Source: an uncultured Alphaproteobacteria bacterium (GTDB lineage Bacteria > Pseudomonadota > Alphaproteobacteria > Rs-D84). From it: a DNA stretch of 64,000 nt. A program made the translations under genes and the position numbers. Shown here in pieces: positions 25,086 to 59,177 of this stretch. The notes below the pieces were generated by a model. It worked only from the letters and a program-made list of their open reading frames with translations. It was not told where the DNA came from and searched no databases. How positions within the stretch are numbered: position 1 is the first letter of the stretch; each line of letters opens with the position of its first letter. The DNA is taken from the NCBI GenBank assembly GCA_947054455.1, contig CAMRWN010000004.1:11867-75866 (forward strand), read 5' to 3'.

Positions 25086-26366
25086 ATGCAGGCAGCGGCA
25101 ACAAAACAAATGACAAACTTGGACGCAATCAAGGGGGCCATTGCCGCAAAAATGGATTCTGCAAGCTTTACATCATGGATTGCCCCGCTGGCGTTTGATG
25201 TTGCCGACGGTGTGTTGCATCTGACTGCGCAGAATCAGTTTTCTGCAGACTTTATAACCAGTGTTCATTCCAATGCGTTGAATGCGGCGGCGGCCGAATT
25301 TGGTCTGGCGGTGCGCGTGGGTGTGCGCGGCGCGGCGGCGCCCGTCGCCCCGGTTGCGAACGATAACAACGCCCAGGCGTATGCGCCGGCGGCAGAAATC
25401 GTCGCGGCCCCGTCGGCCGGGTTTGATTCGTTTGTCGTCGCCGATGAAAACGCGTTTGTCGTATCTGCATGCAAGAAACTGGCGGCGGGCGCGGTTTCGT
25501 TCAGCCCACTGTTTATATACGGGCCGGCGGGCTGCGGGAAATCTTTGCTGGCGGAATGCATCCGCGGATGCGCCGCAGGCAGCACCGTAATGATGACCGG
25601 CGGCCAGTTTGTGGCGGAATTCACACGCAGCCTGCACAACCACAGCGTATTCGCATTCAAGGATTTCTGCCGCAACTGCGACACGTTCATCTTGGACGAC
25701 GTTCAGGCGTTGGCGGGCAAGCGTGCGACAACCGAAGAGTTTCTGCAGCTGGTCGTGGATTTGCGCGCGGCTGGAAAAAATATTGTACTGACTGCGAACG
25801 CGGCGCCGAACAATTTGTCCGGATTCGACCGCCGGATGCAGTCTCTGCTGGCGTCGGGATTGGTTGCGGACGTTGTTGCGCCGACGGCGAACGTGCGTCG
25901 CGTGATGTTGATGCGCGCCGGGGTTGGCGCGGATGTCGCGGCCGAAATCGCGGGACGCGTGGCGGCGGACGGACATATGATTGCGGGCGTGGCGACTAAA
26001 ATCAAAACGTATGCAGAACTGATGGGCGCGTCCGTTGACATGGATGTGGCGCAGCGTCTGCTGGCCGATACGTTGCAAAAGGCGAAAACACCGCTGGCGA
26101 TGGTTCGCAATATGTGTGAAAAACTGGGTGTCTCGTATGAGGCTGTATGCGGGGCGGGGCGCAGCCGCGGGTTGGTTATGGCGCGCCAGACAATGATGGC
26201 GGTTCTGAAGGGGGCGACAAATCTGTCCCTGGCGGAAATCGGTCGTTTCGTTGGCGACCGCAATCATGCGACGGTTCTGTATGCCATCAACCAGGTTGAG
26301 AAATTGAAAAAGACGGATTTGGTTTTGTCCGCCCAAATCGACCAGCTGATTGCAGAATGCAAATAA
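25086..26366 (+). CDS. dnaA: Chromosomal replication initiator DnaA
   Basis: AAA+ core (LFIYGPAGCGKSLL, FILDDVQ) and domain IV (RQTMMAVLKGATNLSLAEIGRFVGDRNHATVLYAINQV). Confidence 0.9.
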   Translation: MQAAATKQMTNLDAIKGAIAAKMDSASFTSWIAPLAFDVADGVLHLTAQNQFSADFITSVHSNALNAAAAEFGLAVRVGVRGAAAPVAPVANDNNAQAYAPAAEIVAAPSAGFDSFVVADENAFVVSACKKLAAGAVSFSPLFIYGPAGCGKSLLAECIRGCAAGSTVMMTGGQFVAEFTRSLHNHSVFAFKDFCRNCDTFILDDVQALAGKRATTEEFLQLVVDLRAAGKNIVLTANAAPNNLSGFDRRMQSLLASGLVADVVAPTANVRRVMLMRAGVGADVAAEIAGRVAADGHMIAGVATKIKTYAELMGASVDMDVAQRLLADTLQKAKTPLAMVRNMCEKLGVSYEAVCGAGRSRGLVMARQTMMAVLKGATNLSLAEIGRFVGDRNHATVLYAINQVEKLKKTDLVLSAQIDQLIAECK

Positions 26367-29265: not shown

Positions 29266-29517
29266 TCAAGCCTTATTAAGAGTGTGCGCGGTTATTACAG
29301 TATTGGATGAGGCATTAATCGTGATAATGCAGTGTTTTGTTTTTACGTAAAAATTTTTACCACGTCTGGAAATTTCCGAATTTTGCAGTTGTTTTCGGCA
29401 AAATTCTATCACATCGGTTGCGTCGGTTAAATTCAAATTCCGCCGAAGCCGCATTTCACCCATGGGTGTTGTATGCAGTTTTTCGGACGGAACAGTATTT
29501 TCAGCCGTATCGCACAT
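29266..29517 (-). CDS. Small protein, DUF3781-like
   Basis: GKNFYVKTKHCIITINASSNTVITAH resembles the DUF3781 signature as I recall it. Its ATG overlaps the parE TAA (TAATG). Confidence 0.5.
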   Translation of the reverse strand: MCDTAENTVPSEKLHTTPMGEMRLRRNLNLTDATDVIEFCRKQLQNSEISRRGKNFYVKTKHCIITINASSNTVITAHTLNKA

Positions 29518-31496: not shown

Positions 31497-31687
31497 AGCG
31501 GTACTATTAATATAATAAAATTTGATTTTTCGCAAGTGAAAGAATTCATGGAAACGACGCCGGGCGCCAACTTTGACGGTTTGTTTTCCCAGAAACGTGT
31601 TTTATGCTTTTGAAGGGTGTTATTGCACTTGATTTTTTGTATAATGTGCCTATATATTCGACATAGATAAATTACGGACGTAAAAAA

Positions 31688-36516: not shown

Positions 36517-38604
36517 ATGAAGCCTAAAAAACGAAGCACATTTTTTACGATATTCAGAATTCTGGGCCTGTTCCTGATGGGGCTGGCGGTGGCGTTGGTG
36601 GTGGCACTGTCGCAGGTTAATCTGGAAACACTGCGCGGAAACATACTTGCGATATTGCGGAATGCGACCGGTCTGCCGGTGGAAATTGACGGCGCCGTTT
36701 CGTGGAAGCTGTCGCTGCGGCCGCGGATAGAACTTAACCAGGTGCGGGTTCCAAACGCCGAATGGGCCAGGCACAAGTATGCGTTCAGTGCCGAAAAAAT
36801 TGACGTTACGATAAACCTGCTGTCGCTGCTGCGGGACAGGCCGACGATTCAAAATGTAAAGATTTACGACGCCACCGCGTGTCTGGAGAAAAATGCCGCA
36901 GGCGAGTTTTCTGTAAAGCCGTTCGCCGATGTAAAAGATGCGGATGAAAACGCTGTGGATGCATCTGGGCGCGGCGTACAGCCGAAATATCCCTTCGTCG
37001 ACCCGGGGCTTGGCGGGGTCGAGGTTCGCAATGCCGTGCTGCATATTCTGGACGATACTTATTCCGTTGCCGGATTCAGCATCAGATACGTGCCGCGACG
37101 CGAATCGCGCGAATACGCGGGGTGGATACGTTCCAAATCCCAGGTTTTTCCGTTTATCGTTTCTTATTCGCAGTATAACGCAGAGCGCAAGGTTTATCCG
37201 GTACGCGTTGCATTCTCGACCGGCGGGGACGCATTGATTGCGGACGTCGCGCTGGAGGGAACCAGTCGTCTGCCGATAGATTTTCTGGTGCGCGGGGACA
37301 TCCCCGACATCGCCGCGTTCGGCGAGGCGGTCGGCCTGGATTGGATGGAACTGCCGCGGATAAGTGTGAACGCGGCCGGCGGATTCGACGGGCGCAAAAT
37401 CACGCTGCGCAAATCTTCGTTTGCAATGCGCGGAAACGAAATAAACCTGACGGGCGAATGGGAGTTGGGACGCAGGACGTCGCCGATTAACCTGAATGTT
37501 GATTCGCGCCGTATAAGCCTGCAGGAGCTGATGCCGTGGATGTACGGTCGCAAATGGGTGCGTCCTGACCGCGAATTGAACGTGTTTCACGACATACCGC
37601 TGTTTGGCGCGCAAATCCGCGACTGGAACTTAAACCTGCGCGTCGACATAGGCGAATTTATAGTATATCGTGATTTGACAATACGTGATTTGGATTTGAA
37701 ACTGCGGCTGCGGGATGCGCAGGCGCGCATCGATGCACGTGCGGGCATCGGGGGTGGCGGCATTCGTGCGGCCGCCGACGTTGACATAGAAACTGATGGA
37801 ACCATGGATGCACGTGCGGCCGCCGTCGGCGAGAATATCGTTGTCGGCCGGATACTGGATGAAATCCGTGTGCGTGATATTATCTCTGAGCTGCCAGTCA
37901 ATTTCCAGGCGTTTGTCGTCGGACGTGGAAGCAATTTGTCAGAGATGATGCAGACGATAACCGGCCCCGTTCAGATTTATTCGGTGGGGTCAGGGTATGC
38001 GCATTCGGCACTGGTTTCAAATATGTACGGTACGGATTTTCTGACGTCCTTGCGCCATAGTATACAGGATTTGTTCCGCAGCGAAAAAAAGCATAACCAG
38101 ATAAAGATATCGTGCGCGGCGCTGAATACAAAACTGCGGGCCGGACTGGCCGAGACGCAGCACGGCGTTGCGGTGGAAACCAATGCAATAAACCTGCGGC
38201 TGGCGGGAAGTCTGGATTTGGGCGGCGAGACGATGAAACTGTCGCTGACGACGGTGCCGGTTCGCGGTTTGAAACTGTCGCTGACGGGGAATGTGATGAA
38301 TTCGGTTGAAATAACGGGCAACCTGGCCGAACCGGACATCAAGATAAACGGCGCGGCCGTCGTTGGCAAGGTTGCGTCGGCGACGGGACTGGGGCTGCTG
38401 CTGGCACCGCTGACGGGCGGGATAAGCATTGTCGCGGGGGCGGGCGTCGGACTGATTGCGGGCGATTTGCTGGAAAACTGGCTGGCGGACGACACGCCAT
38501 GCAAGACCGCGATGAACCGTGGTGCGCCGTCAATGCGCGAAGACCCCCAGTGGATGGATGCGCCGATAGGCGAACTGGTTGGCGAACTGTTTGAAAACAA
38601 CTGA
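36517..38604 (+). CDS. AsmA family outer-membrane assembly protein
   Basis: 695 aa with an N-terminal TM anchor and long beta-rich repeats. AsmA-like N-terminal (LRGNILAILRNATGLPVEIDGAVSWKLSLRPRIEL) and C-terminal regions. Confidence 0.75.
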   Translation: MKPKKRSTFFTIFRILGLFLMGLAVALVVALSQVNLETLRGNILAILRNATGLPVEIDGAVSWKLSLRPRIELNQVRVPNAEWARHKYAFSAEKIDVTINLLSLLRDRPTIQNVKIYDATACLEKNAAGEFSVKPFADVKDADENAVDASGRGVQPKYPFVDPGLGGVEVRNAVLHILDDTYSVAGFSIRYVPRRESREYAGWIRSKSQVFPFIVSYSQYNAERKVYPVRVAFSTGGDALIADVALEGTSRLPIDFLVRGDIPDIAAFGEAVGLDWMELPRISVNAAGGFDGRKITLRKSSFAMRGNEINLTGEWELGRRTSPINLNVDSRRISLQELMPWMYGRKWVRPDRELNVFHDIPLFGAQIRDWNLNLRVDIGEFIVYRDLTIRDLDLKLRLRDAQARIDARAGIGGGGIRAAADVDIETDGTMDARAAAVGENIVVGRILDEIRVRDIISELPVNFQAFVVGRGSNLSEMMQTITGPVQIYSVGSGYAHSALVSNMYGTDFLTSLRHSIQDLFRSEKKHNQIKISCAALNTKLRAGLAETQHGVAVETNAINLRLAGSLDLGGETMKLSLTTVPVRGLKLSLTGNVMNSVEITGNLAEPDIKINGAAVVGKVASATGLGLLLAPLTGGISIVAGAGVGLIAGDLLENWLADDTPCKTAMNRGAPSMREDPQWMDAPIGELVGELFENN

Positions 38605-43690: not shown

Positions 43691-45010
43691 ATGTTGAAAA
43701 GAATTGTTGTGCTGGTTGCGTTCTGCTGTCTGTTTGTGGTGCCGGTCCGTGCCGAGCTGAAGGTGGATATCGTTGCCGGCGGCGCTGCGCCGACATCGGT
43801 TGCGGTGCAGAAGTTTGAAACGGTGGGCGATGTTTCTGCGGCGGATGCAAAAATGATACGCCAGGTTGTAGAGGATGATTTAAAACGCACCGGCCTGTTT
43901 CGCATCGTCGGACATGACGCCTTTCCGGAATATGTGAAAATGGGTTCAATGCCAAACTTTAAGTCATGGATGGCGATAAAGGCACAGGTGCTGGTTCAGG
44001 CAAAGCTGACACAGCAGGCGGGCGAACGTTATAATCTGGAGTTTTATGTATGGGATGTAAACGGGGCCGAGCAGATAGAGGCCCAGTCATTGGTTGCGTC
44101 CCGTAAATCCGCGCGCCGAATGGCGCATATAATGGCGGATGCGATTTACGAGCGGCTGACCGGCGAAGTCGGATATTTCGACACGCAAATTGTATTTATC
44201 GCGGAAACCGGCCCGGTACATAACCGAACCAAGCGCATGGCCATAATGGACCAGGACGGATACGGTATGCGTTATTTGTCCGATGAAAACACGTTTGTGA
44301 TGTCGCCGCACTTTTCGCCCAACATGCAGACGGTGGTCTTTCTGTCATATCGCGACGACGACCCGATGGTTTGGACGTTGGACTTGGATACGGGCGACCA
44401 GCGGCGTTTGGGACAGTTCGGCGGTATGAATTTTGCGCCGCGGTTTTCGCCGGATGGCACCAGAATCGCGCTGTCGCTGGTCAAGGATGGAATAACGCAT
44501 ATATATGAATATGACATGGAATCGAAAAAGCTGCGGCAGTTGACTTTTGGCAACTCGCTCAACACCAGTCCGTCATATTCGCCCGACGGTAAAAAGCTGG
44601 CCTTTAATTCCGACCGTTCGGGGCGCCAACAGATTCATGTCATGGATTTGGACACGCTGGCCGAGCAGCGCATAACATACGGCGCGGGCCGGTACGCAAC
44701 GCCGGCATGGTCGCCCGACGGCCAGTTCATCGCGTTTACCAAAATGGCGGACGACACGTTTTACATAGGCGTTATGAATCCGCGCGGGCGAAATGAAAAA
44801 ATTCTGGCCGGCGGCTGGTTTATGGAGGCGCCTTCCTGGGCGCCGGGGTCGCGCCGCGTGGTTTATTATGAAACGGAAAAGGCGCTGGACGGGATAGAGC
44901 GTATCAGCCATATCCGCAGTGTGGATATTACCGGCCAGAACATATATGATATCGAACTGCCGGAAAATGTGAATGGTCTGGAACCAACATGGTCGCCGAA
45001 ACTGCCGTAG
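43691..45010 (+). CDS. tolB: Tol-Pal system periplasmic protein TolB
   Basis: Signal peptide, TolB N-domain and six-blade beta-propeller repeats (SPDGTRIALS, SPDGKKLAFNSDRSG, SPDGQFIAFT). Confidence 0.9.
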   Translation: MLKRIVVLVAFCCLFVVPVRAELKVDIVAGGAAPTSVAVQKFETVGDVSAADAKMIRQVVEDDLKRTGLFRIVGHDAFPEYVKMGSMPNFKSWMAIKAQVLVQAKLTQQAGERYNLEFYVWDVNGAEQIEAQSLVASRKSARRMAHIMADAIYERLTGEVGYFDTQIVFIAETGPVHNRTKRMAIMDQDGYGMRYLSDENTFVMSPHFSPNMQTVVFLSYRDDDPMVWTLDLDTGDQRRLGQFGGMNFAPRFSPDGTRIALSLVKDGITHIYEYDMESKKLRQLTFGNSLNTSPSYSPDGKKLAFNSDRSGRQQIHVMDLDTLAEQRITYGAGRYATPAWSPDGQFIAFTKMADDTFYIGVMNPRGRNEKILAGGWFMEAPSWAPGSRRVVYYETEKALDGIERISHIRSVDITGQNIYDIELPENVNGLEPTWSPKLP

Positions 45011-45011
45011 C

Positions 45012-45038
45012 AAAAAAATCCCGCGATGCGGGATTTTT
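45012..45038 (+). terminator. Terminator after tolB
   Basis: AAAAAAATCCCGC-GAT-GCGGGATTTTT. Confidence 0.7.
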
Positions 45039-45074
45039 GTTTGTTTTATTTTCATATCATTATAAAATGCGAAC

Positions 45075-45500
45075 ATGAATAAAATCATTTCTGCGGTGTT
45101 TGCAATCTGTTTTGTGCCGCGCTGCGCGTCGGCGGTTCCCGCCGTGGTTGATTATATTTTCGATGGCGACACATTTGCGGCGTATGTAAATCTGGCGCCG
45201 GACATATCCGTGTCTGTACGCGTCAGGCTGATTAACGTCGATACACCCGAAATCCACGGACAATGTGCGTCTGAAATCACGCGGGCGCTGCAGGCGCGCG
45301 ACAGACTGGCGGAATTGATTCCCGTCGGGACGGTTGTCGAATTGGAAAACATCAAGGATGACAAATATCTTGGGCGAATTGATGCAAACGTTTTCGCATC
45401 CGATGGCCGCGATGTGGGAATTGTGTTAATCCGCGAGAAGCTGGGGCGTCCGTATTCCGGCGGTCGTCGCATGTCGTGGTGCGACGGCACCGCGCAGTAA
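45075..45500 (+). CDS. Secreted thermonuclease (SNase-like) protein
   Basis: Signal peptide, plus DGDTFAAYV...VRLINVDTPE...LGRID and RPY motifs of staphylococcal-nuclease homologues. Confidence 0.8.
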   Translation: MNKIISAVFAICFVPRCASAVPAVVDYIFDGDTFAAYVNLAPDISVSVRVRLINVDTPEIHGQCASEITRALQARDRLAELIPVGTVVELENIKDDKYLGRIDANVFASDGRDVGIVLIREKLGRPYSGGRRMSWCDGTAQ

Positions 45501-45525
45501 AAAATCCCGCATCGCGGGATTTTTA
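45499..45525. terminator. Bidirectional terminator (nuclease / plsC)
   Basis: AAAAAATCCCGC-ATC-GCGGGATTTTT, the inverted copy of the hairpin at 45012-45038. Confidence 0.7.
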
Positions 45526-45526
45526 T

Positions 45527-46234
45527 TTATGCACTGTGGCGGTTTATCGCCTCGCTTATTTCATCCAGTGATGCGTTGCATGGCAGCAGGGGCTCGAAAT
45601 AAACATTGGCGGTGCCGCTGTGAACACGGCCGTGTTTGGGCCAGAACTTGCCGGCATCGGTTCCCACCGGCAGAATAGGCAGTTTCAGCTGATGCGCGAT
45701 ATAGAGCAGGCCACGGCGCAGTGGTATGCGCTGTCCCGGTTTTGCGCGCGTGCCTTCGGGGAATATAATCAGAATCTGGCCGTCCATTATTTTTTTCGCC
45801 ACCTTGGCCGCCAGCTTGTTCATGTTTGTTTTGCCGCGTGTTCTGTTTACCGGAACCAAGCCCATCCGCCAAAACGCCCATCCGTAAACCGGTATCCACA
45901 TTATTTCACGCTTTACAATAAAAAAGGAGTTCGGTACCACCTTGGACAATATTGCGATTTCCAAAATCGACATGTGTTTGGCGGCGATTATCGCCTTGCC
46001 ATCCAGGCGATAGTTGCCGTTTGGCATTGCGGGAACGCCGTTTTCTTCGCGCGGGGGATAATGTACGGCGTATTTTATGCCGCATACCAGACGCGCCACC
46101 CACAGTACGCCCGCCGCGCACGTTTTTACCAGGAAATCATTCAGGCGTTTTGACACCAGCCCCACCAGCAGCAGCGGCGACCATGCCAGGAAATAAAGTC
46201 CCAGTATTAATTTAAATAAGATTGTTTTTATCAT
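45527..46234 (-). CDS. plsC: 1-acyl-sn-glycerol-3-phosphate acyltransferase
   Basis: An N-terminal TM helix, an acyltransferase block I variant (AAKHMSILE) and block III (IFPEGTR). I place the start at MIKTILFKL. Confidence 0.8.
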   Translation of the reverse strand: MIKTILFKLILGLYFLAWSPLLLVGLVSKRLNDFLVKTCAAGVLWVARLVCGIKYAVHYPPREENGVPAMPNGNYRLDGKAIIAAKHMSILEIAILSKVVPNSFFIVKREIMWIPVYGWAFWRMGLVPVNRTRGKTNMNKLAAKVAKKIMDGQILIIFPEGTRAKPGQRIPLRRGLLYIAHQLKLPILPVGTDAGKFWPKHGRVHSGTANVYFEPLLPCNASLDEISEAINRHSA

Positions 46235-46245
46235 GATGTTTTCCT

Positions 46246-46758
46246 TTACCAACTTTCCTTGATTCCGATCATCGTCGCGATATATTTTATATATTCCGTG
46301 GTCCAACGTTCAAGTCTTTTTGCAGGCGGCATCCCGGCCAGTGCAGCAGGACAGGCGACGATTTCCATTCCCGGCAATTGTCCGCGCACCAGGTACAGTG
46401 CGCGGTTCATATGGTCTTCGGTTGTGATGATAACCAGACGGTCCAGACCGGTTTGACGGGCAATTTTTCTTATCGCAACGGCGTTTTGATATGTAGATTT
46501 CGAATCGGATTCCACCGATGCGCGGCGCGTTATGGCCGGTGATGCGTTCGCGCCGGCACCGATTATGTATAAATCTGCGTCAGGGTATTTCGACAGTTGC
46601 CGCATCGCAAAAGGAATACGTCGCGCATCGCCCGTCAGGACGAATATGCTGTCGTCCGGTCGCAATTGCGGACAGCGTGTCGGTGCGGCCGATTTGAAAA
46701 CCATTCCGCCGATAACAAATAATGCGACAACTAAAAAAGACGGTGTAAAGAATTTCAT
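46246..46758 (-). CDS. DUF218 (YdcF/ElyC-like) protein
   Basis: IFVLTGDARR, STYQNAVAIRKI and LVIITTEDHMNRA motifs. Its ATG overlaps the ftsX TGA (TGATG). Confidence 0.65.
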   Translation of the reverse strand: MKFFTPSFLVVALFVIGGMVFKSAAPTRCPQLRPDDSIFVLTGDARRIPFAMRQLSKYPDADLYIIGAGANASPAITRRASVESDSKSTYQNAVAIRKIARQTGLDRLVIITTEDHMNRALYLVRGQLPGMEIVACPAALAGMPPAKRLERWTTEYIKYIATMIGIKESW

Positions 46759-47594
46759 CAGTTGTTTTTCAAAATGTTCAGCGTTGTGCGCCGCGTTATA
46801 TAAATTGCGAATACTATGATTGCAACCGGCATCATAATCAGCGCCATCCATCCGGCCCCCGACAGGCCCATCATCGCCATCAGGCCCACGCGCGCCGATT
46901 TCGCCGCCGACAGCACCAGCATCAGTACCACCGCCGCCGCCGCAAATCCGGCCGCGCCCGCGACGGCGCATATTTTGGCCGTGATAATTTGCATCTGGCG
47001 GGCGACAAAAGCGTCGGTGGCGCCGATTTGGTTCAGTATTTCCAGTTCGCGCCGGTGCAGCATGGCCGTGTTGCGCGCTATGTATGACACGCATACGCCA
47101 ATTGTCCCCAGTGCGCATCCCAGCACAATTGCCGCGATTAAAATCATTTTCCAACCCGCCGCGGTCGATGTCCGCAGCGCCTGGGCGTGCGTCAGAAACC
47201 GTGCGTGCGGCGCGATTTGCTTGCCGACTGATTCCAGGTCGGATTTTGTGTTGAATTTCACCTCCCACATTTTGGGCAGATAGTTTTGCAGCGCGCCGCC
47301 GCCCGATAGCCACGGACGCAGCAAATCCGCCATTTCATCCGCGGTTATTTCCCGCGACAGGGCGATTTTGTCTGACTGGGTTCCCAGAATTTTTCGAACC
47401 GCACCCTCGTTATCGGAATTCATTACCTGAACTGTTGCGAACAAATCCCATTGCGCGTTCCAGCGCATCACGCCTGTTCCAATCGCCAGCGCAATCCCCA
47501 GCGCCATGACCGACAGAAAGGTCAGCAGCGACATTATTGCCGTCATGAATACGGATTGTTCGCGAACCAGTGAAAATACAATCGGCTTTTTCAT
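46758..47594 (-). CDS. ftsX: Cell-division permease-like protein FtsX
   Basis: Four TM segments with a periplasmic loop. It lies directly after ftsE with a 0-nt gap. Confidence 0.8.
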   Translation of the reverse strand: MKKPIVFSLVREQSVFMTAIMSLLTFLSVMALGIALAIGTGVMRWNAQWDLFATVQVMNSDNEGAVRKILGTQSDKIALSREITADEMADLLRPWLSGGGALQNYLPKMWEVKFNTKSDLESVGKQIAPHARFLTHAQALRTSTAAGWKMILIAAIVLGCALGTIGVCVSYIARNTAMLHRRELEILNQIGATDAFVARQMQIITAKICAVAGAAGFAAAAVVLMLVLSAAKSARVGLMAMMGLSGAGWMALIMMPVAIIVFAIYITRRTTLNILKNN

Positions 47595-48386
47595 TTATGC
47601 GTTTCCAATATCGTCAAACTGTTTTGACAGTTCCGTGAAATAATTCTGTGGCTTGGGGCCTTTCCATGTTTTCTTGGCGGCCGCATCCGCGGTGGTACGC
47701 GCGGCGGCGGTGCCTTGGAATCCGACCTTGTGGTTTTCCACGTGAATTACCGGGAATTTGTACGTGTCCATCAGCTTTTTGCTGTGTGTCGCCAGAATTA
47801 TGGTCGTGCCGAACATTTTGTTCATTTGTATAAACAGTTCCATCAGGCGGGACGCGTTTTCATCGTCCAGATTGCCCGTCGGTTCGTCGGCCAGCAGTAT
47901 TGAAGGCTGGACTATGATTGCGCGGGCGACCGACACACGCTGCTGCTGGCCGCCGGACAGTGATTTGGGGTTGGCGTCGGCGTATTTGCCCAAACCGACC
48001 CATTCCAAAACCTTGGCCACCAGTTTTTGTATCTTTGATTCTGATATGCCGCGAACGCGCAGGGGCAGGGCCACGTTGTCGAACACGGTCAGGTGCGACA
48101 ACAGCGAGTATTCCTGAAACACAATCGCCATTTTGTGGCGCAGGCGCGCTATGTCGTCGCGCGTCATGTCGCCTGTGTTTTTTCCAAACAGCTTTATCTG
48201 GCCGCGTGCGGGTTTGTGCAGCTGGTATATCAGGCGCAGCAGTGTTGTTTTTCCGGCGCCTGATGCCCCGGATAGAAAATAGAACGAACCCGCGCTGATG
48301 TTAAATGACACATCGCTGAGCACTTCGTCCGCATTGTCGTACGCCGCGGCGACGTTTGCAAAGGAAATAGCAGTCTTTTCTTCCAT
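47595..48386 (-). CDS. ftsE: Cell-division ATP-binding protein FtsE
   Basis: Walker [10 protein letters not shown], signature [14 protein letters not shown] and Walker [11 protein letters not shown] place the start at MEEKTAISF. It has a C-terminal extension of about 40 aa. Confidence 0.9.
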
Positions 48387-48451
48387 GATTCGGATGGTAG
48401 TAAAAAAAGGTTTGCCGGTCAAGAAAATGAAAAACGCCCGAAGGCGTTTGA

Positions 48452-48847
48452 TTATTTAACGGTTGTCGTGGTGTTTCTGTTTTTTGCCCAGATTTTTTCA
48501 CCGGTTCCCGGATACTGCGGATTTTCCTTGCCATAGGAAACGGTTTTGATGCGGGCCGGTTCAATGCCTTCCTTTATTATGACGTGCGCGGCGTTTCCTG
48601 CGCGCAGCGCCCCCAGCGCCAGATTGTATTCGGTGGAACCGCGTTCGTCGCAGTGGCCGCCCATCACAATGTTTATGTCGGGATTTTTCTTCATATATAA
48701 CGCCTGTTTTTCCAGGTCGCGGCGCGCCGCATCGGATATTTCGGCAGAGTCAAATGCAAAGAAAACCTTGTCATCGTTGATTTTGTTCGGAACGCCGCCG
48801 CATGCCGCCAAAGAGGCCAGGGCCGCAATCAATAAAAATTTTTTCAT
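48452..48847 (-). CDS. pal: Peptidoglycan-associated lipoprotein (OmpA family)
   Basis: Lipobox LAACGG and an OmpA-C domain (GHCDERGSTEYNLALGALRA). Confidence 0.85.
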   Translation of the reverse strand: MKKFLLIAALASLAACGGVPNKINDDKVFFAFDSAEISDAARRDLEKQALYMKKNPDINIVMGGHCDERGSTEYNLALGALRAGNAAHVIIKEGIEPARIKTVSYGKENPQYPGTGEKIWAKNRNTTTTVK

Positions 48848-48978: not shown

Positions 48979-49710
48979 ATGAAAAAAATTGTTTCTTTGG
49001 CTGTTTTGTGTGCAATGACTATGCCGGTGTTTGCGGCGCCCGCCCGTCCCAGCTATATAAAGCGCGACGCGGACGGCGGATACAACATAACTTATAGTTA
49101 TAATGACAAGGCCAAGACCGGATGGTACGTGGGCGGTCGCGCGGAACTGAGCTTTTTGAACTGGAAAAACAAATATTCGTCTGATGACCCCAAACTTGGC
49201 GGTGCCAGCGACAAGTATTCGTTTGAACCGGTCTTTGGCGGTGGTGTGTTCGCGGGCCGCACGTTTGGGTATTTTTGGCGCGCTGAATTAGAGGCGGGAT
49301 ATCTGGGCTATTTTGATGACAAGGGCGACGGCGCGGAATTTTCGCTGTCGGTTCCGTATGTTATGGCAAACGGATATTATGACTTTGACAACGGTTTTTA
49401 TGCCGGGGCCGGGGTGGGTGTCGCGATACCGACAACAGAAATGGACGCATATGTTATTCAGGATAACGGAATGCTGATAAAGATGGAGGGCGACAACACC
49501 AAAAAGACGGCGGTGTCCCCGATGGGCGGCGTGTATTTGGGTTGGTCGCGCAAATTGGACGACAATCTGGTTTTTGATTTGCGTTATCGTCTGGCGGGCC
49601 TGACAGGTACAAAACACACGCGTCGTCTGAACAACGGTTATGATTATGAAAACAAAATCGGCCTGATTCTGGACAATTCGCTGTCCATGGGGCTGAGATA
49701 TGAATTTTAG
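48979..49710 (+). CDS. Outer-membrane beta-barrel protein (paralogue type of 4089)
   Basis: Signal MKKIVSLAVLCAMTMPVFA, alternating strands and a C-terminal LRYEF. Confidence 0.6.
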   Translation: MKKIVSLAVLCAMTMPVFAAPARPSYIKRDADGGYNITYSYNDKAKTGWYVGGRAELSFLNWKNKYSSDDPKLGGASDKYSFEPVFGGGVFAGRTFGYFWRAELEAGYLGYFDDKGDGAEFSLSVPYVMANGYYDFDNGFYAGAGVGVAIPTTEMDAYVIQDNGMLIKMEGDNTKKTAVSPMGGVYLGWSRKLDDNLVFDLRYRLAGLTGTKHTRRLNNGYDYENKIGLILDNSLSMGLRYEF

Positions 49711-49772
49711 CGCAATAATGGGTTGTATTGAATACGTCAAATATGGCATCATTGACTAGGTAGAGAGAATAA

Positions 49773-51407
49773 ATGAAACATAGTGTGTGGATTTCAACAA
49801 TAGCGGTTGTTTGTGTTATTTGCGCATCGGTGTCCGATGCGAATGCGGCGGCGTCCGTGCGTTCGCTGGGGGGGGCTGGCACATACAGCAGCGCGTCCGC
49901 CGCGTCTTCGGCCGCGTCGGCAAAGCCCAGTGCCGCAATCAATGCGGTGCGCGGTGGTTCCATGCGTGTTTCGCCGTCGGCTTCGGCGCGGCCCGGTACA
50001 CCGGTAAAGACGACGGGAACCCCGATAACAACGCAGCGTTTGTCCATAGGTAAACATTTGGGTGGTGCGACATCGGTCAGCGGCGGTTCGTCGACGCGTC
50101 CCGGCACGAGTGGTGGTGGAACCAGTGGCGGCGGCACGCTGGATCCGGGGGCTACGGCCGATTTGGAACGCCAGATTGACGATTTGTACAGCCAGGTGGA
50201 TAAACTGGGCAAGGCCGACGAAGACCTGGCCGCGGCGCTGGATGGAAAGCAGGCGGCGCTGAATTCCACCGACGGACTGATTGTTATTGAAGACGACGGC
50301 AACATGTCGCTGGACGTCGAAGGATTAAAGGCGGCGATGGATGTCGCAGTCGGCCAGGATGGCCGCGAGGTTGTAATCGGCACCAATGCCGTCGGTGATA
50401 TTGTGTGGCAGTACGAAGGCGACGGCCCCGATGAATGGCAGTTGCTGATTGCAAAACAAGATTTGGTTGGTCCCCAGGGCCCCCAGGGTGAAAAGGGTGA
50501 GCCGGGAATCGCGGCGGATATGGACTTGTATTCCACAACCGCGGAAATGAATGACGCCATTGCGTCGGCGATAACCGCGGCATCAGCCGGATGGGCCACT
50601 AAGGAGGATTTGGAAGCCAAGGCCGAGAAAACCGAACTGGCGGGGTTGGCAACCAAGGAAGAGGTCAAGACTTCGTTTGATGCCATTTCACAGGATATAA
50701 ACACCGCGCTGGACGATGTATACACCAAGGCCGAAGTGGACGAGAAGGTTGCGGATGTTGTCGCCGGCGACATGAGCGAGGCGTTGAAAGCCTATGCCAC
50801 GACAGAACAGTTGAATGCCGGTCTGGCCGGCAAGGCTTCAACGTCTGATTTGACGAAATTGGAAGCTACGGTCATATCGGTCGGTAATGCGGCCGACGGC
50901 GCCAAGGCCGCGGCCGATGCGGCGGCCAAGTCCGCAGAGGAGGCAAAGACCGCGCTGACTGGCAAGGCGGACAAATCTGAGATACCGACCGTTCCGACCA
51001 AGGTCAGCGAGTTTCAAAATGATGCCGGATATCTGACGGCGCACCAGTCGCTGGCGGGATTGGCGACCAAGGAAGAACTGGCCGCGTACGCGACGACCGA
51101 CGCGGTTAACAAGACGGTCAATGATGTAAAAACCGAACTGCAGGAAGAAATTCAGAACGTTGTTGCCGGCGACGTCAGCCAGGAAATCAACAACGCTGTG
51201 GCGCAACAGGTTCAGAATATCAAAATTACCAATACCCAGATTGCGGCGGATGCGGAAATCGCGCGTTCGAAGCTGGCGGCTGATGTCCGTGCATCTTTGG
51301 ATGCCGCGGATTCCATGATAACGGCACCGCAAACCGGCGACTTTGTTCTGTTTGTCAGCGATGGTGAAAAGAGCTGGGCCAAGGTCGTTGATGCAAACGG
51401 ACAATAG
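49773..51407 (+). CDS. Secreted fibre protein 1 (collagen-like triplets plus coiled-coil, tail-fibre-like)
   Basis: Signal peptide, a Ser/Ala/Gly-rich region, GPQGPQGEKGEPG (50469-50507), repeated LAGLATKEE units and the tail GDFVLFVSDGEKSWAKVV. Confidence 0.7.
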   Translation: MKHSVWISTIAVVCVICASVSDANAAASVRSLGGAGTYSSASAASSAASAKPSAAINAVRGGSMRVSPSASARPGTPVKTTGTPITTQRLSIGKHLGGATSVSGGSSTRPGTSGGGTSGGGTLDPGATADLERQIDDLYSQVDKLGKADEDLAAALDGKQAALNSTDGLIVIEDDGNMSLDVEGLKAAMDVAVGQDGREVVIGTNAVGDIVWQYEGDGPDEWQLLIAKQDLVGPQGPQGEKGEPGIAADMDLYSTTAEMNDAIASAITAASAGWATKEDLEAKAEKTELAGLATKEEVKTSFDAISQDINTALDDVYTKAEVDEKVADVVAGDMSEALKAYATTEQLNAGLAGKASTSDLTKLEATVISVGNAADGAKAAADAAAKSAEEAKTALTGKADKSEIPTVPTKVSEFQNDAGYLTAHQSLAGLATKEELAAYATTDAVNKTVNDVKTELQEEIQNVVAGDVSQEINNAVAQQVQNIKITNTQIAADAEIARSKLAADVRASLDAADSMITAPQTGDFVLFVSDGEKSWAKVVDANGQ

Positions 51408-51473
51408 GAATGAAACAATTTCGCTGGCTTTCTTATAAAAAGCGGTGATAAAGGCAAGAAAAGGAAGTATGAA

Positions 51474-52364
51474 ATGAAAATAAAAAATATTGCTTTTTCC
51501 GGGGTGGCGGCGGCCATATTCGGCATGAGTGCGGCACATGCGGCGCCTGTGGAAATCGCAAGCCGGGCATATGTGGACAATGTCAGGGACGCGACATTGC
51601 AAACAGTGTCCAATACATATATCACCAGCGAGGATGCCGCGAACACATACGTTAACAACACGCAGCTGGGCGACCAGATTACAAACAATATAACCAACGC
51701 GCTGCAGGATGCAGATTCCGCAATTGCCAAGGAATTGGCGACCAAGGCGGACGCGTCGGATGTAAATACGCTGCGCACGGATGTAAACGGATTGAAAACG
51801 GCGGTCGGCGACGAGACGTCGGGTCTGACCAAGGCAACGGCGGACGCGGCGGCAACGGCGGCGGCGGCCGACAAAAAGGCGTCCGATGCAGCGGCCCAGG
51901 CCACAAAAAATGCCACTGATTTGACGGCGCTGGACGTTCGGGTTACGAAAAATACAAATGATATCGCTGCTATAAACAGCGGCATCGACAAAACTGTTGC
52001 CGATGCGATTGCGGGCGCCTTGACCGGCGAGGGTGAAATCAAGGAATCCATTGATGCCGCAATTGATAGCGCGATTGGGGATTTGCCGATTGGTACACTG
52101 ACAACGGATGTTGCAAACTTAAAGACAACCGTTGGCGATGACACGACCGGTCTGGTAAAGGATGTTGCCGACAATTCGGCTGCAATTGAAACATTAAACG
52201 GTGATGAAAATACAGCAGGCAGTGTTGCAAACACTGTCAAATCCTTGGCGGTGCCACAGCCGACAGGTGATTGCGCAGCACAATCAGGACGTTGCGTATT
52301 GTCTTATGACACGACCGCAAAGGGCGTTGTCTGGATGGATGTGACGTCGCCGCTTGGTGAATAA
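51474..52364 (+). CDS. Secreted fibre protein 2 (tail-fibre-like)
   Basis: Signal ...SAAHA|APVEIASRAYVD, repeated KADxSDV/LNGxxxTAGSV units and the C-terminal CAAQSGRCVLSYDTTAKGVVWMDV. Confidence 0.7.
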   Translation: MKIKNIAFSGVAAAIFGMSAAHAAPVEIASRAYVDNVRDATLQTVSNTYITSEDAANTYVNNTQLGDQITNNITNALQDADSAIAKELATKADASDVNTLRTDVNGLKTAVGDETSGLTKATADAAATAAAADKKASDAAAQATKNATDLTALDVRVTKNTNDIAAINSGIDKTVADAIAGALTGEGEIKESIDAAIDSAIGDLPIGTLTTDVANLKTTVGDDTTGLVKDVADNSAAIETLNGDENTAGSVANTVKSLAVPQPTGDCAAQSGRCVLSYDTTAKGVVWMDVTSPLGE

Positions 52365-52392
52365 AACAAATAAAAAGTAAAGGAAGAAAATT

Positions 52393-53307
52393 ATGAAAAA
52401 ATTAACTGCTGGTATTTTCACTGTCATGCTGGGCATTGTCGGCATGGGCGCGGCGAACGCGGAAATTGCGTCCAAGGCGTATGTTGACCAAACAACAGGC
52501 TCCGTTGAGACAAAGGTAGAAAGCCTGACGCAAATTGTGAATGCAAATGCCGGTACCGCCGCAGACAACAAAGAAGCGATAGAAACATTGACCAGCCAAC
52601 TGGAGGGCAAGGCCGATACATCCGCGTTGGATACGCTGGCGGGGCGCGTAGATGCAAACACCGCTTCGATTACAACGCTGAACGGTTCCGGCGAGGGCAG
52701 TGTTGCAAAGAAAATTACGGATGCGTTGACACCCTATGCCAAGACCGCCGATGTTGCGACCCAGATTCAGGGTGCGACCGCCGGATTGTTGAGTGCGACA
52801 GACGCCGATGCGGCATATGCACCGATTGCGACCAAGGACACTGCGGATGCCAACAAGGCCGCTATTGAAAAATTGAACGGCACGGCTGAAACAGCGGGCA
52901 GTATCTTGAACACTTTGGCGCCTTATGCCAAAACGGCTGATGTAAACGCATCTTTGGCCGACGTAAATACCGAAGTGGGCAAGAAAGTTTCCACGGATAC
53001 ATATAATACACAAATCGGTGTGGTTAACCCAACGAATATGGGTGCGTCCGCCAGTGCGACAACGGTTGTTGCCGGTATCAAGGAAGCAAACGAGAATGTT
53101 AAAAGGAACGAACAGAATATTACTGCCAACCGCGAGGCGATTGATAAAAGCTTAGCCGAATTGGGTACGGATGTTGAAAGCAGACTGCCGCGTCCGACCG
53201 ACGCATGTGCGGATCCAAAGAACAAGTGTGTTCTGGTGTCTGCGGGCAAAGGTAATTATACATGGGAAGTTATAGAACGCGGTACCAGCGAAACTTCTGG
53301 AAACTAG
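52393..53307 (+). CDS. Secreted fibre protein 3 (tail-fibre-like)
   Basis: Signal ...GAANA|EIASKAYVDQ, with the same repeat grammar and the C-terminal CADPKNKCVLVSAGKGNYTWEVI. Confidence 0.7.
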   Translation: MKKLTAGIFTVMLGIVGMGAANAEIASKAYVDQTTGSVETKVESLTQIVNANAGTAADNKEAIETLTSQLEGKADTSALDTLAGRVDANTASITTLNGSGEGSVAKKITDALTPYAKTADVATQIQGATAGLLSATDADAAYAPIATKDTADANKAAIEKLNGTAETAGSILNTLAPYAKTADVNASLADVNTEVGKKVSTDTYNTQIGVVNPTNMGASASATTVVAGIKEANENVKRNEQNITANREAIDKSLAELGTDVESRLPRPTDACADPKNKCVLVSAGKGNYTWEVIERGTSETSGN

Positions 53308-53318
53308 GCACGGGTTGT

Positions 53319-53348
53319 GCATGGATTGGCGTCAATGCCAATCCATGC
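53319..53348. other. Perfect 12-bp stem hairpin between fibre genes 3 and 4
   Basis: GCATGGATTGGC-GTCAAT-GCCAATCCATGC. No T-run follows. Confidence 0.6.
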
Positions 53349-53419
53349 GCCCGACGCGTGGACATACACAGACATTGCGTAAATATTTATAAGACATATA
53401 CGAAAGAGCAGAACTGATT

Positions 53420-54730
53420 ATGAAAAAAGCGACGAGTATTTTTGTAATTTCTATGATTGCCGCGGTTGTTTCTGGGCCGGCGCGGGCCGATGTGGCCAGT
53501 GCGGGTTTCGTGCGTGAAATGCTGGACGGGGCCGAGGTTTCCGCCAACAAGGAAACCAGCATCAGCGATTATGATGTTCAGGATGCGAACAAGTATCCTA
53601 ACATGCCGGTCGCCCAGCAGATGATTTTGGATTCCCAGTCGTCCATCCAGGGCCAGCTGAAGACGGAATCAAACGCACGCAAGGCAGAAGACGAAAAATT
53701 ACAGACGGCGTTGAACGCGGTTAAATCGACGGCCGACACTGCGGTTCAGCCCGGCGATTTGGCGGCGGTTGCGACAAGCGGGTCTTATAATGATTTGACG
53801 AACAAGCCGGCAATTCCCGCCGCCCAGGTTCAGTCGGATTGGAATGCGACAACCGGTGTTGCGGCGATAAAGAACAAGCCGACCATTCCGACCAAGGTCA
53901 GCCAGCTGACCAATGACAGCGGATTTGCAACAACAACTGCGGTTAACGCAAAGGTTTCCACCGCACAGGGCGACACTAACAAGAACAAGGCCGTCATCAC
54001 CGATGCGTCGGGAAACATCACGACCGGCACCGTTTCGTCCGCCATGATTACCGATGGCACGATTGTAAACGCCGATATTGCGTCAAATGCGGCAATCGCT
54101 GCGTCCAAGATTGCGGGCCTGGCGGCGGTTGCGACAACTGGGTCTTATAATGATTTGGCGAACAAGCCGACGATTCCCCCCGCAATAACCGTTGATTCCG
54201 CATTAAGTGCGACCAGCACAAATCCGGTTCAAAACAAGGTTGTAAACACCGCGCTGTCGGGCAAGCAGGCTACATTGTCGGCCGCGCAGTTAAATGCCGC
54301 GAATTCGGGTATCACCAGTGCAAAGGTCGCCACATACGACGGATATGCGCAGCAGATTGCAGGCAAACAGGCGGCCCTGGGGTATACAGCGGAAAATTCG
54401 GCAAACAAAACCACGACTATCGCCGCCGCGGCCAGTGCCAGCGATACAAAATATCCGTCCGAGAAAGCCGTTGCAACCGCATTGTCGGGCAAACTGGCGA
54501 CAACAGGCACGGCGGCGCGTGCGACCGCAGACGCGTCGGGCAACAATATCGCCAGCACCTATGCCACCAAGGCACAGTTGAACAATCTGGACGCCACGGC
54601 GACGGGTACGGGGGCTGTTATCGTAAATGTCTCGCAGACAGACGGGAAAATTACCGCAACCAAGGGAAATGTTCAAATCCCAGTCGGCAGTGCAACCGGC
54701 ACGACATATGCAACCATATGGGTTCAATAA
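53420..54730 (+). CDS. Secreted fibre protein 4 (phage tail-fibre repeat protein)
   Basis: Signal ...GPARA|DVASAGFV. There are two copies of LAAVAT(S/T)GSYNDL(T/A)NKP(A/T)IP, a motif I associate with phage tail fibres, and the protein is Thr/Ala/Asn-rich. Confidence 0.7.
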   Translation: MKKATSIFVISMIAAVVSGPARADVASAGFVREMLDGAEVSANKETSISDYDVQDANKYPNMPVAQQMILDSQSSIQGQLKTESNARKAEDEKLQTALNAVKSTADTAVQPGDLAAVATSGSYNDLTNKPAIPAAQVQSDWNATTGVAAIKNKPTIPTKVSQLTNDSGFATTTAVNAKVSTAQGDTNKNKAVITDASGNITTGTVSSAMITDGTIVNADIASNAAIAASKIAGLAAVATTGSYNDLANKPTIPPAITVDSALSATSTNPVQNKVVNTALSGKQATLSAAQLNAANSGITSAKVATYDGYAQQIAGKQAALGYTAENSANKTTTIAAAASASDTKYPSEKAVATALSGKLATTGTAARATADASGNNIASTYATKAQLNNLDATATGTGAVIVNVSQTDGKITATKGNVQIPVGSATGTTYATIWVQ

Positions 54731-54732
54731 GA

Positions 54733-54766
54733 AATCCCGCCGCAGGGCGGGAATCTTTTTTATTTT
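54733..54766. terminator. Terminator after the fibre array
   Basis: TCCCGCC-GCAG-GGCGGGA plus a T-run. Confidence 0.65.
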
Positions 54767-57698: not shown

Positions 57699-57719
57699 TA
57701 AGTTAAGGATAAAATTAAA

Positions 57720-58130
57720 ATGTCTGTATTTAAATATTTTCTGCGAACAAAATTCAGGGATATACACGCCGATTGGTCGGAATATAAAAAACTGTGTGCG
57801 GCATATGGCAAGCTTAAGAAAGAAAGCAATGCGAAAGCGCTGGAAATACGCACTTTGTATATGAACAAGGCAATGATGGATAGTCTGCCGGTATCGTGCG
57901 TCAGGGATGTGCGTATGGACATCAGTGATTTCGATTTGCCAAATTTTCAATCAATTTATTTCGAGCCTTTGTGTTGTGAAAATTTTAGCCTGTCAAACCC
58001 GTGTACTGATGCGCGGTGCAAATACAGACGGCGCAATAATGATTTCTGCGATACGTACCAAAAGTTAGTAGAGGTTGAGAAGGCAAAAAAAGCATTCTGG
58101 GCCGGCAGAATCTCCGAAAGGACAAAATAA
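57720..58130 (+). CDS. Hypothetical Cys-containing protein
   Basis: 136-aa ORF that looks AT-rich by eye. It has a C-terminal Cys cluster (CCENFSLSNPCTDARCKYRRRNNDFC). It lies directly upstream of the integrase-like gene. Confidence 0.5.
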   Translation: MSVFKYFLRTKFRDIHADWSEYKKLCAAYGKLKKESNAKALEIRTLYMNKAMMDSLPVSCVRDVRMDISDFDLPNFQSIYFEPLCCENFSLSNPCTDARCKYRRRNNDFCDTYQKLVEVEKAKKAFWAGRISERTK

Positions 58131-58157: not shown

Positions 58158-59177
58158 GTGGCGCATCAATTTTATTTTAACCCGTATATCTTGGACAATC
58201 TGCCCGCGCCGGCATCTGGTTTTGATGTGGTCCAGGACCTGTCGGATCCGCGTCTGCGCATGTATATAACCAGTCGGGGGGTCAAAACGTTCTTTGTCCG
58301 CAAACGTGTAGGCGGACGCGACCGGCGCATAATAATAGGAAATTATCCCGACATGGATATAGAGGACGCGCGCAGCGCGGTTCCCGTCATTTTGGAAAGT
58401 GCGTCGCAGAAAAAGCCCGCGCGCCGCAACAAGATAACATTTAAAAAATTTCTGGACTTGTATCTTGACAGGCGCGTGCGCCGGGGCGAGGATTCACGCA
58501 CAAAGCTGGTGCGTGCCATAGATCGTCATTTGTCGGCGCTGTTTGAAAAGAATATTTCCGAAATAACCGCTCAAGATATTGCGGCGGTTATCGCCACGAT
58601 ACGCGGCGCGGCAATCGCAGGCCGCATGCAGGAATTGGTGCAGAGCATTTTCAACTATGCCGTCGATGCCGGATATGTAAAAGAAAATCCGGCAGCGTCC
58701 CTGGCCAAGGTTCCCCAGAACAGGCGTGTTCGCCCGCTGACCCGGGGCGGGTTGGTGCGACTGGTGGATGCGATACGTGCGGAACCAGACACGGTTGTGC
58801 GCGCGGCGTTTCTGATGCTGATATATGGGTTTGCGCCAAAGTCCAAAATTTTTTCAATGCAGTGGGAACAGCTGGACTTTAATCATTATATGTGGGGCGA
58901 TATGCCGTTGTCGGATGCGGCGGTGGTGTTGCTGCGTGATTTGCCCCAGGACAGTTTCTGGGTTTTTCCCGGTCGCGGCGGCAGTCATTTGACCGACCCG
59001 CGTTGCGCATGGCGGCGCGTTGCAACCGCGGCGGGGATTCCTGATTTGACAATGGATGACGTGAATAAATTCCTGATGCGCAGGCTGGTTTGGACGTCAG
59101 ACAAAGAAGAATTTCGCATGAATATGAATTCTTTACTGGAAGAAATTTCGGACACGGAAATCGACAGTAATTTTTAG
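58158..59177 (+). CDS. Tyrosine-recombinase (P4-type integrase) homologue with apparently degenerate catalytic residues
   Basis: GTG start. The DUF4102-like N-terminus (LRMYITSRGVKTFFVRKRVGGRDRRIIIGNYPDMDIEDAR) and the SAM-like core are recognisable. The box I Arg, the box II His and the C-terminal Tyr cannot be found. Confidence 0.6.
   Translation: MAHQFYFNPYILDNLPAPASGFDVVQDLSDPRLRMYITSRGVKTFFVRKRVGGRDRRIIIGNYPDMDIEDARSAVPVILESASQKKPARRNKITFKKFLDLYLDRRVRRGEDSRTKLVRAIDRHLSALFEKNISEITAQDIAAVIATIRGAAIAGRMQELVQSIFNYAVDAGYVKENPAASLAKVPQNRRVRPLTRGGLVRLVDAIRAEPDTVVRAAFLMLIYGFAPKSKIFSMQWEQLDFNHYMWGDMPLSDAAVVLLRDLPQDSFWVFPGRGGSHLTDPRCAWRRVATAAGIPDLTMDDVNKFLMRRLVWTSDKEEFRMNMNSLLEEISDTEIDSNF

Follow-up and report, generated by a model that had tools for sequence, protein, structure and literature searches.

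We describe an array of four consecutive genes, here called G1 to G4, that lies behind a putative outer-membrane beta-barrel gene in a window of 64,000 nucleotides (nt) from an uncultured alphaproteobacterium of the order Rs-D84 (contig CAMRWN010000004.1; the window is the whole stretch of DNA analysed, all positions refer to it unless another locus is named, and all features of the array are on its forward strand unless stated otherwise). On balance we favour the reading that the array is a core-genome, highly variable locus of Candidatus (Ca.) Enterousia encoding Sec-exported, probably trimeric surface fibres. Every related genome found carries this highly variable block at one and the same chromosomal position, which makes the array a good candidate for partner attachment. 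Fibrous surface proteins with borrowed phage parts are a kind already known; what is new here is the distinctive architecture and the genomic setting.

The barrel gene (48979..49710, 243 amino acids (aa)) heads the array and is followed by G1 (49773..51407, 544 aa), G2 (51474..52364, 296 aa), G3 (52393..53307, 304 aa) and G4 (53420..54730, 436 aa). These five open reading frames (ORFs) are where an earlier sequence-only reading of this DNA had placed them, with 62 nt between the barrel gene and G1 and gaps of 66, 28 and 112 nt between the four same-strand genes that follow. AGGA-type ribosome-binding sites are seen upstream of G2 and G3, and the sole strong terminator-like hairpin of the block (54735..54752, two-way) is found downstream of G4, between it and the convergent dedA gene. 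The upstream flank consists of tolB, a nuclease gene, plsC, a DUF218 gene, ftsX, ftsE and pal, and the downstream flank of a VTT/DedA gene, rbfA, lepA, acpP and fabF. The absence of virion genes from the flanks, remarked on in the sequence-only reading, holds: housekeeping genes lie on both sides, and none of the precomputed Pfam matches on a 98%-identical strain points to a capsid, terminase, tube, sheath or baseplate gene near the array.

A scan of one genome per species returned 46 related loci, which, bar one contig, belong to Ca. Enterousia or to unnamed alphaproteobacterial metagenome-assembled genomes (MAGs) from animal guts. Where the contigs reach, the gene order is kept: tolB, nuclease gene, plsC, ftsX, ftsE, pal, barrel gene, array, dedA, rbfA, lepA, an integrase-like gene and fabF (the DUF218 gene and acpP are also found in a closely related strain). 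Flanking proteins are 60–92% identical to those of the window and array proteins 25–47%, the latter often over part of their length. Twenty arrays are complete from the barrel gene to dedA; they span 4.2–15.2 kb and contain 4–10 ORFs, the 5.1 kb of the window being among the shortest. Nearly all array products in the related loci have a leader-like N-terminus (192 leader-bearing proteins), and the classes follow each other in a constant order: a G1-type gene (always the first), one or two G2-type genes, a G3-type gene, sometimes extra genes, and a G4-type gene as the last fibre gene. Each class has its own conserved leader, N-terminal motif and C-terminal end (e.g. IAS-x-x-YVD is shared by G2, G3 and many G4-type proteins), and the middles are a mosaic of interchangeable modules that differ strongly between species. 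Copy number varies between genomes, a comparison suggested in the sequence-only reading; it is the middles that are variable and not the tips, which are conserved. Chance is excluded, given that related loci have this block at the same position too. We also considered a recent horizontal arrival and rejected it: the GC content is not unusual, and both the site and the class order are conserved.

The one exception among the 46 loci (CAVGNU010000018.1) is filed as a Bacteroides fragilis bin. It shows the full Enterousia order from tolB to pal, barrel gene and array, with flanking proteins 66–88% identical, and judged by these it is almost certainly a mis-binned contig. The two longest barrel-to-dedA blocks (15.2 and 13.4 kb) have extra genes downstream of the G4-type gene (13944–18773 of locus L029 and 12706–19248 of locus L037); some of these encode leaderless proteins that are not fibre-like, and one encodes a second barrel-like protein ending in ...GIDF.

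All five products of the window have a Sec-type leader, with one or two positive charges, 18–21 uncharged residues and small residues at positions −3/−1; the predicted cleavage sites of G1 to G4 are ANA/A, AHA/A, ANA/E and ARA/D (the slash marks the cut). These calls are heuristic, based on n-, h- and c-regions and AxA-type sites; they agree with the leader previously assigned to each gene, and the leaders are conserved across the family. Every motif picked out in the sequence-only reading is present, and in a six-frame translation of the 64-kb window they are confined to the array block: IAS(K/R)AYV at 51555 (G2) and 52465 (G3), C-x6/7-C-VL...W at 52272–52334 (G2) and 53206–53265 (G3), GSYNDLxNKP twice in G4, and the collagen-like run of G1. 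FQNDAGY in G1 and LTNDSGF in G4 are likewise found in this block only. The KADxSxL and LNGx(3–6)GS units, described as repeated, do occur, but in one or two copies per gene only. Ala, Thr, Asp, Asn and Gly are abundant in the mature proteins, whose only cysteines are a C-terminal pair each in G2 and G3; there are none in G1 and G4.

The four proteins resemble each other only in short modules. BLASTP aligns G2 and G3 with 19 identities out of 32 residues and 17 out of 35 (the leader plus (E)IAS(K/R)AYVD, and an AAIExLNGxxxTAGS unit), G1 and G4 with 15 out of 29 (a common block PT(V/I)PTKVSxxxNDxG(Y/F)), and G3 and G4 in the leader region; there is no significant BLASTP similarity between G1 and G2. 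At the DNA level the longest repeats are 64 nt within G4 (91% identical) and 46 nt between G1 and G4 (78%). The genes, earlier taken for tandem paralogues, are four old positional classes and not recent duplicates, since the class order is kept across related arrays.

After its leader, G1 has ∼100 residues rich in Ser/Ala/Gly/Thr/Pro with SVRSLGGAGTY, then helical segments, a short collagen-like run and ATKE(D/E)L repeats, and it ends in a hairpin without cysteines. Its family comprises 676 orthologues from Ca. Enterousia, all unnamed or ‘hypothetical’, and the copy in the window is short, as most listed relatives have 740–930 aa. The collagen-like run, GPQGPQGEKGEPGIA (50469..50513), has five G-x-y triplets: the run itself is real, as read before, but it gives no match to the Pfam Collagen family (PF01391), which one longer G1 orthologue does carry. 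G1 also has a PHROG match to a minor tail protein (2e-4) and weakly resembles the beta-layer coiled coil 5apz in a PDB search.

G2 (leader MKIKNIAFSG..., then IASRAYVD) and G3 (leader MKKLTAGIF..., then EIASKAYVD) share a build in which a predicted stalk, coiled-coil-like in G2 and segmented and helical in G3, ends in a predicted C-terminal disulfide hairpin. G2 matches the PHROG family phrog_1056 ‘fibritin neck whisker’ weakly (3.6e-6). The G3 family has 408 members in a 90%-clustered database, with names no more informative than ‘hypothetical protein’; in a 50%-clustered library it comprises 148 clusters at E ≤ 1e-30 and 638 at 1e-10, mostly of 200–600 aa and matching from residue 1. Alignments of this family show hardly any change in the leader (MKKLTAGIF...A-x-A), which leads into IASKGYVD, or in the end (IP-x-P-x-x-C-x-x-P-x-N-K-C-V-L-...-Y-x-W-E-V-I-E-R); the middle cannot be aligned. 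Some relatives of the array proteins score on the alanine-zipper/Lpp Pfam family PF11839.

G4 consists of a leader, DVASAGFV, a long helix predicted with confidence (residues 62–108), phage-type modules and the end ...IPVGSATGTTYATIWVQ. More than 3,000 relatives share modules with it. The module LAAVATSGSYNDLTNKPAIP is present in two copies (53760..53823 and 54120..54183, found by a repeat search), which account for the 64-nt repeat mentioned above. None of the four proteins has a meaningful match in Pfam or NCBIfam (in Pfam at E ≤ 0.1 there is only noise).

Among the C-termini of the 192 leader-bearing array proteins, 86 have a Cys–Cys hairpin (G2 and G3 type), 42 have the Cys-less form G-x-Y-V-L-T...G...W-x-x-I (G1 is one of these), 33 finish with (I/F)-W-(V/I)-(E/Q) as G4 does, and many of the remaining 31 end in ...VLGTDGxGxxVWYEIAM. 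In the window, the hairpin motifs are GDFVLFVSDGEKSWAKVV for G1 (51336..51389, Cys-less), CAAQSGRCVLSYDTTAKGVVW for G2 (52272..52334, from the motif scan) and CADPKNKCVLVSAGKGNYTW for G3 (53206..53265, likewise; strands 278–283 and 289–294 in the model); G4 has a hairpin (strands 400–407 and 410–416, from model and alignment) with the conserved end Y-A-x-I-W-V-(E/Q) (54617..54727). The C-terminus of G1 aligns with those of 31 other array proteins, with a consensus of G-x-Y-x-L-T...G...W-x-x-I. The common C-terminal block, called a tip in the sequence-only reading, is thus present in most array proteins. Our proposal, by analogy, is that it is more likely a trimerisation or assembly unit than a receptor-binding tip, because a conserved Trp-hairpin ends a helical fibre with a varying stalk. 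This is the place of the foldon in T4 fibritin, where three hairpins of this sort fix the register of the trimer.

The structure of G3 was modelled as a monomer with AlphaFold2 from an alignment of 91 sequences (mean predicted local distance difference test (pLDDT) of 72.8). From residue 20 to residue 264 the model is a series of ten helices joined by short loops, after which come a short helix and the beta-hairpin 278–283/289–294; the hairpin is confident (pLDDT 88–89), and the cysteines are at 272 and 279. The hydrophobic periodicity is mostly 3.3–3.7 residues along G3, and also in several segments of G2 and G1. A profile of the G3 family gives only weak matches in the PDB, all to trimeric fibres (a coronavirus HR1 mimic, reovirus sigma-1 at 0.005, fibritin at 0.49 and a SadA fragment at 0.68), and searches of the PDB with the sequences of G1, G2 and G4 return nothing significant. 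The stalks of G2 and G3 are therefore predicted to be segmented, helical and coiled-coil-like, and not like the beta-rich tail fibres. By our own estimate a modelled G3 fibre would be ∼36 nm long (∼245 helical residues of ∼0.15 nm each), exceeding the typical width of the periplasm.

Two contigs of a strain that is ∼98% identical carry the array, with the lengths of G1, G2 and G4 unchanged. The ratio of nonsynonymous to synonymous substitution rates (dN/dS) between the strains is 0.11–0.13 for G1, G2 and G4 and 0–0.18 for the flanks; being low and flank-like, it indicates that the array genes are under purifying selection. The synonymous rate (dS) of G2 and G4 is about twice that of the flanks. 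In G3, a cassette in the stalk (52926..52962) of 37 nt (∼45 nt if a few shared bases are included) is replaced by ∼250 nt in the otherwise 98%-identical strain, with sharp borders, altering the stalk by 69 residues. The visible change is thus by cassette and not by point mutation. Recombinational tip swapping, as proposed in the sequence-only reading, does not agree with this: the N- and C-terminal blocks are conserved and the middles vary, and the sole change observed at the strain level is this cassette inside the G3 stalk. Programmed switching was considered and rejected for the window, as its longest repeats are the 64-nt and 46-nt ones, no silent cassettes or invertible promoters are seen, and the integrase-like protein encoded downstream has no catalytic tyrosine.

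The relatedness to phage is concentrated in the middle of G4. Residues 118–173 match the PHROG tail-fibre family phrog_9729 (E = 3.4e-15), tblastn against 50,697 phage genomes finds cyanophage tail fibres with up to 65% identity over ∼50 residues, and G4 modules are found in 35 viral contigs of IMG/VR. By contrast, G1, G2 and G3 have no tblastn match in the same phage genomes, and the G1 family and the G2/G3 family are absent from the IMG/VR viral contigs. Among 74 array proteins, PHROG matches include the tail-fibre family phrog_892 in eight (best 3e-23), phrog_28766 in five and fibritin neck whisker in three (best 5.9e-9). The label ‘phage-tail-fibre-like’, once applied to all four genes, is therefore firm for part of G4 only: G1 and G2 have no more than weak PHROG matches, and G2 and G3 are predicted to be helical. 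That the genes are chromosomal, exported and fibre-like and not part of a prophage is borne out by their fixed core-genome site in Ca. Enterousia/Rs-D84, with no virion genes nearby.

The array has features in common with several known systems. The MAT (mosaic adhesive trimer) fibres of Bdellovibrio bacteriovorus begin with a beta-rich domain of ∼130 aa, have stalks of intertwined beta-prisms and end in variable tips; 13 out of 21 carry an S74 protease domain (Caulton et al. 2024, PMC10769870). Like them, the array proteins are chromosomally encoded, have a signal peptide, are mosaic, contain phage-like fibre parts and form a multi-gene repertoire, and the MAT host depends on contact with other cells, as Enterousia is suspected to do. 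But the mature N-terminus of the array proteins is a motif of 7–9 residues that runs into a helix (at residue 20 of G3 and 23 of G4) or, in G1, a low-complexity stretch; helical stalks are predicted for G2 and G3; and the C-termini are conserved where MAT tips are variable. The array gives no Pfam Peptidase_S74 match, and its sequences do not match the MAT tips with solved structures in the PDB. In addition, MAT genes are not described as one conserved array (PMC10769870), which the genes studied here are. The parallel with Bdellovibrio drawn in the sequence-only reading therefore extends to the signal peptide, but the proteins do not belong to the MAT family, given its defining N-terminal domain, variable tips and S74 domain.

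T4 fibritin (gp wac) is the nearest in predicted build, with marginal homology: G2 and G3 are predicted to share with it a segmented helical stalk, loops of the xIxxLNGxxxxxGS type and a final short Trp beta-hairpin. Fibritin, however, is a leaderless virion protein, many of the array hairpins carry a Cys pair, and sequence homology to the foldon is undetectable. The type Vc trimeric autotransporters (YadA, UspA1, SadA and BadA), which serve in adhesion, are exported via Sec and have long interrupted coiled-coil stalks, as is predicted for the array proteins, and are likewise modular and variable, but they are anchored by a 12-stranded C-terminal YadA-like barrel, which is absent from the array proteins (these end in a predicted hairpin of ∼20 residues, based on Pfam and the G3 model). 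Tail fibres of T4-like cyanophages and other phages (phrog_9729 and phrog_892) share with G4 only the modules GSYNDLxNKPxIP and IPTKVSQLTNDSGF, at the identity given above; the phage proteins have no counterpart of its leader, N-terminal motif or C-terminal IWVQ end, and the context of the array is cellular. We found no earlier description in the literature of fibritin-like exported proteins or of tail-fibre-like epibiont adhesins like these.

The host is consistent with a need for partners. Genomes of the order Rs-D84, which includes Enterousia, are of 0.75–1.0 Mb and lack respiration, the tricarboxylic acid cycle, flagella and the standard sugar, amino-acid and peptide transporters, and these bacteria have been proposed to take metabolites from other cells (PMC12306168). 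The idea of a small-genome host that depends on a partner is in line with this survey, in which the dependence is suspected. We propose that the array proteins would cross the inner membrane via Sec, that the C-terminal Cys pair (where present) would be oxidised in the periplasm, and that the Trp-containing hairpin would align three chains in a foldon-like way, with the stalk zipping up from the hairpin. The fibres may then be displayed on the cell surface, attached by the conserved N-terminal end and with the variable stalk modules pointing outward, where they could bind a partner cell or a host surface, or vary to escape recognition. Candidates for the outer-membrane route or anchor would be the co-conserved barrel protein encoded upstream and a TcpQ-like/secretin pair. 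A more specific reading, which we put forward tentatively and hold to be possible, is that the array is the attachment apparatus of Enterousia, made throughout the lineage of fibritin- and tail-fibre-like parts and displayed by a route without any of the known anchors, perhaps through the adjacent barrel protein or the TcpQ-like/secretin pair, to recognise and hold the cells that it feeds on. If true, phage fibre parts would have been put to use in cell–cell recognition for a second time, independently of the MAT fibres of Bdellovibrio.

Several points weigh against the array encoding surface fibres. Surface display, trimer state, anchoring and binding are each inferred, and the structure models, being of monomers only, do not reach the trimer state. 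No known outer-membrane anchor or export signal was found (no YadA-type barrel, lipobox or Pfam domain). If the C-terminus is for assembly and the N-terminus for anchoring, binding would need to reside in the stalk, which is less usual than binding by a tip (the stalk of UspA1 does itself bind ligands). With dN/dS of 0.11–0.13, positive selection on point mutations is not seen. The G4 monomer model is poor (pLDDT 60.9), with one confident helix (62–108) and the hairpin at 400–416. The helical stalk and hairpin of the G3 monomer model answer the call for a structure prediction in part, but in the fold searches Foldseek finds nothing at E ≤ 0.001 for G3 against the PDB and BFVD or for G4 against BFVD; fibre proteins modelled as monomers are not comparable in such searches, however, and confidence in the G4 model is low. 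Finally, a profile of 32 array C-termini does not hit any foldon-tagged PDB chain at E ≤ 10, and in an hhalign comparison with the foldon the probability is 0.85%. With both of these tests negative we reject homology to the foldon at the sequence level, and keep the foldon as an analogy of shape and position.

Variability without specific adhesion would suit a variable surface coat, used for antibody evasion or phage blocking. The diversity of the family (the 148 clusters at 50% identity counted above), the conserved ends with variable middles, the strain-level cassette and the animal-gut habitat all fit such a coat; yet the window has no silent cassettes, invertible promoters or long identical repeats, the integrase-like gene lacks the codon for a catalytic tyrosine, and dN/dS is low. 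We consider a coat of this kind unlikely.

A Sec leader guarantees arrival in the periplasm only, and the proteins might instead stay there as structural coiled coils of the envelope, i.e. Lpp-like spacers or tethers between the membranes. This would explain why no export or anchor signal for the outer membrane was found, it agrees with the position of the block beside pal and tolB, and it would suit those relatives that score on PF11839. Envelope scaffolds are normally conserved, however, whereas the array middles vary extremely from one species to the next and, at the strain level, by a cassette; modules of the phage receptor-binding type are present; and the inferred lengths exceed the width of the periplasm (by the estimate for G3, and several times more in relatives of 600–1000 aa). 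Periplasmic scaffolds are thus quite unlikely.

Fibres released to the medium or onto vesicles, as phage decoys, bacteriocin-like binders or matrix, would need no recognisable anchor, could use the TcpQ-like/secretin pair of the same window (which could pass folded proteins) and would make use of phage-like binding modules. But there is no toxin, lysis or immunity gene in the block by Pfam and PADLOC scans (nor do the array proteins match any PADLOC defence-system model), and attachment accounts better for the strongly conserved N-terminal motif and for a barrel gene that is always next to the array, which leaves release very unlikely. The only alternative close to excluded is a remnant of a prophage, tailocin or gene-transfer agent with surviving fibre genes: the PHROG tail-fibre and fibritin matches and an integrase-like gene 3.4 kb away speak for it, but every gene has a leader (absent from virion fibres), the site is fixed in the core genome across the lineage, the genes are intact and under purifying selection, other virion genes are missing, G1–G3 have no match in phage genomes (nor do the G1 and G2/G3 families in IMG/VR), and the integrase-like gene itself belongs to the core genome, where it is conserved and degenerate.

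This integrase-like gene (58158–59177, forward strand) is located between lepA and fabF, 3.4 kb downstream of the array; the 28 related loci that reach this position have it too, with 65–71% identity. Only the N-terminal arm-binding and core-binding domains of its product match integrases; the C-terminal part has no catalytic tyrosine and no canonical H-x-x-R box, and the position of the first catalytic Arg is K or R. From its sequence, the gene looks like a domesticated relative of recombinases, probably inactive, and on account of its conservation, its degeneracy and the missing tyrosine we rejected it as evidence of a prophage. A segment of 424 nt between lepA and this gene (57701–58125) is missing from the otherwise 98%-identical strain (locus L047). 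The strain-specific insertion contains an ORF (57720–58130, forward strand) for a Cys-rich protein of 136 aa with no Pfam or PADLOC match.

The barrel gene is present in the 33 related loci that reach that side (46–60% identity). Its product has a Sec leader and a C-terminus of ...LRYEF, with 14% Gly and 9% Tyr, and this composition and the terminal Phe are compatible with an outer-membrane barrel. It has a weak NCBIfam match to the Rickettsia Adr barrel adhesin (6e-4, far below the family cut-off) and no Pfam match at E ≤ 0.1 in a direct search; a ‘faint’ precomputed match to PF13505 (OMP_b-brl) exists for the 98%-identical copy.

Under the surface-fibre reading, the locus would be of interest for several reasons. 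Ca. Enterousia/Rs-D84 are common uncultured gut bacteria that are suspected to live off other cells, and their contact machinery is unnamed (PMC12306168). The locus makes up 0.5–1.7% of the genome, is present in every related locus that covers the site and is the most variable stretch in a conserved neighbourhood; its proteins are all unnamed or hypothetical and without a Pfam family. It offers concrete candidates for partner or host recognition, as well as a marker for strain typing, and the conserved ends can be used to retrieve and compare the variable stalks from metagenomes. If the fibres do reach the surface, they would be displayed without any known anchor.

Other genes in the window were also observed. 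The tolB and pal genes are split (43691–48847, on opposite strands), with the nuclease gene, plsC, the DUF218 gene and ftsEX between them, an unusual arrangement that is kept across the related loci. The TcpQ-like gene (PF10671, 8.5e-18) is directly upstream of the secretin gene (PF00263, 1.2e-13) at 18566–21148 on the forward strand, 28 kb upstream of the array. In a published survey, type IV pilus genes are reported for UBA9783 only and none for Rs-D84, and flagella are missing; the pair could serve in DNA uptake (dprA is at 23747–24769) or in protein export. A gene for an AsmA-family protein (36517–38604, forward strand; PF05170, 5e-21) is retained in this very small genome, and by its family the protein is a possible inter-membrane bridge for lipid transport. 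The window may be near the replication origin, since dnaA (25086–26366, forward strand) and gyrB (29517–31535, reverse strand) are ∼25 kb upstream of the array; the cumulative GC skew climbs across the entire window, without a turning point.

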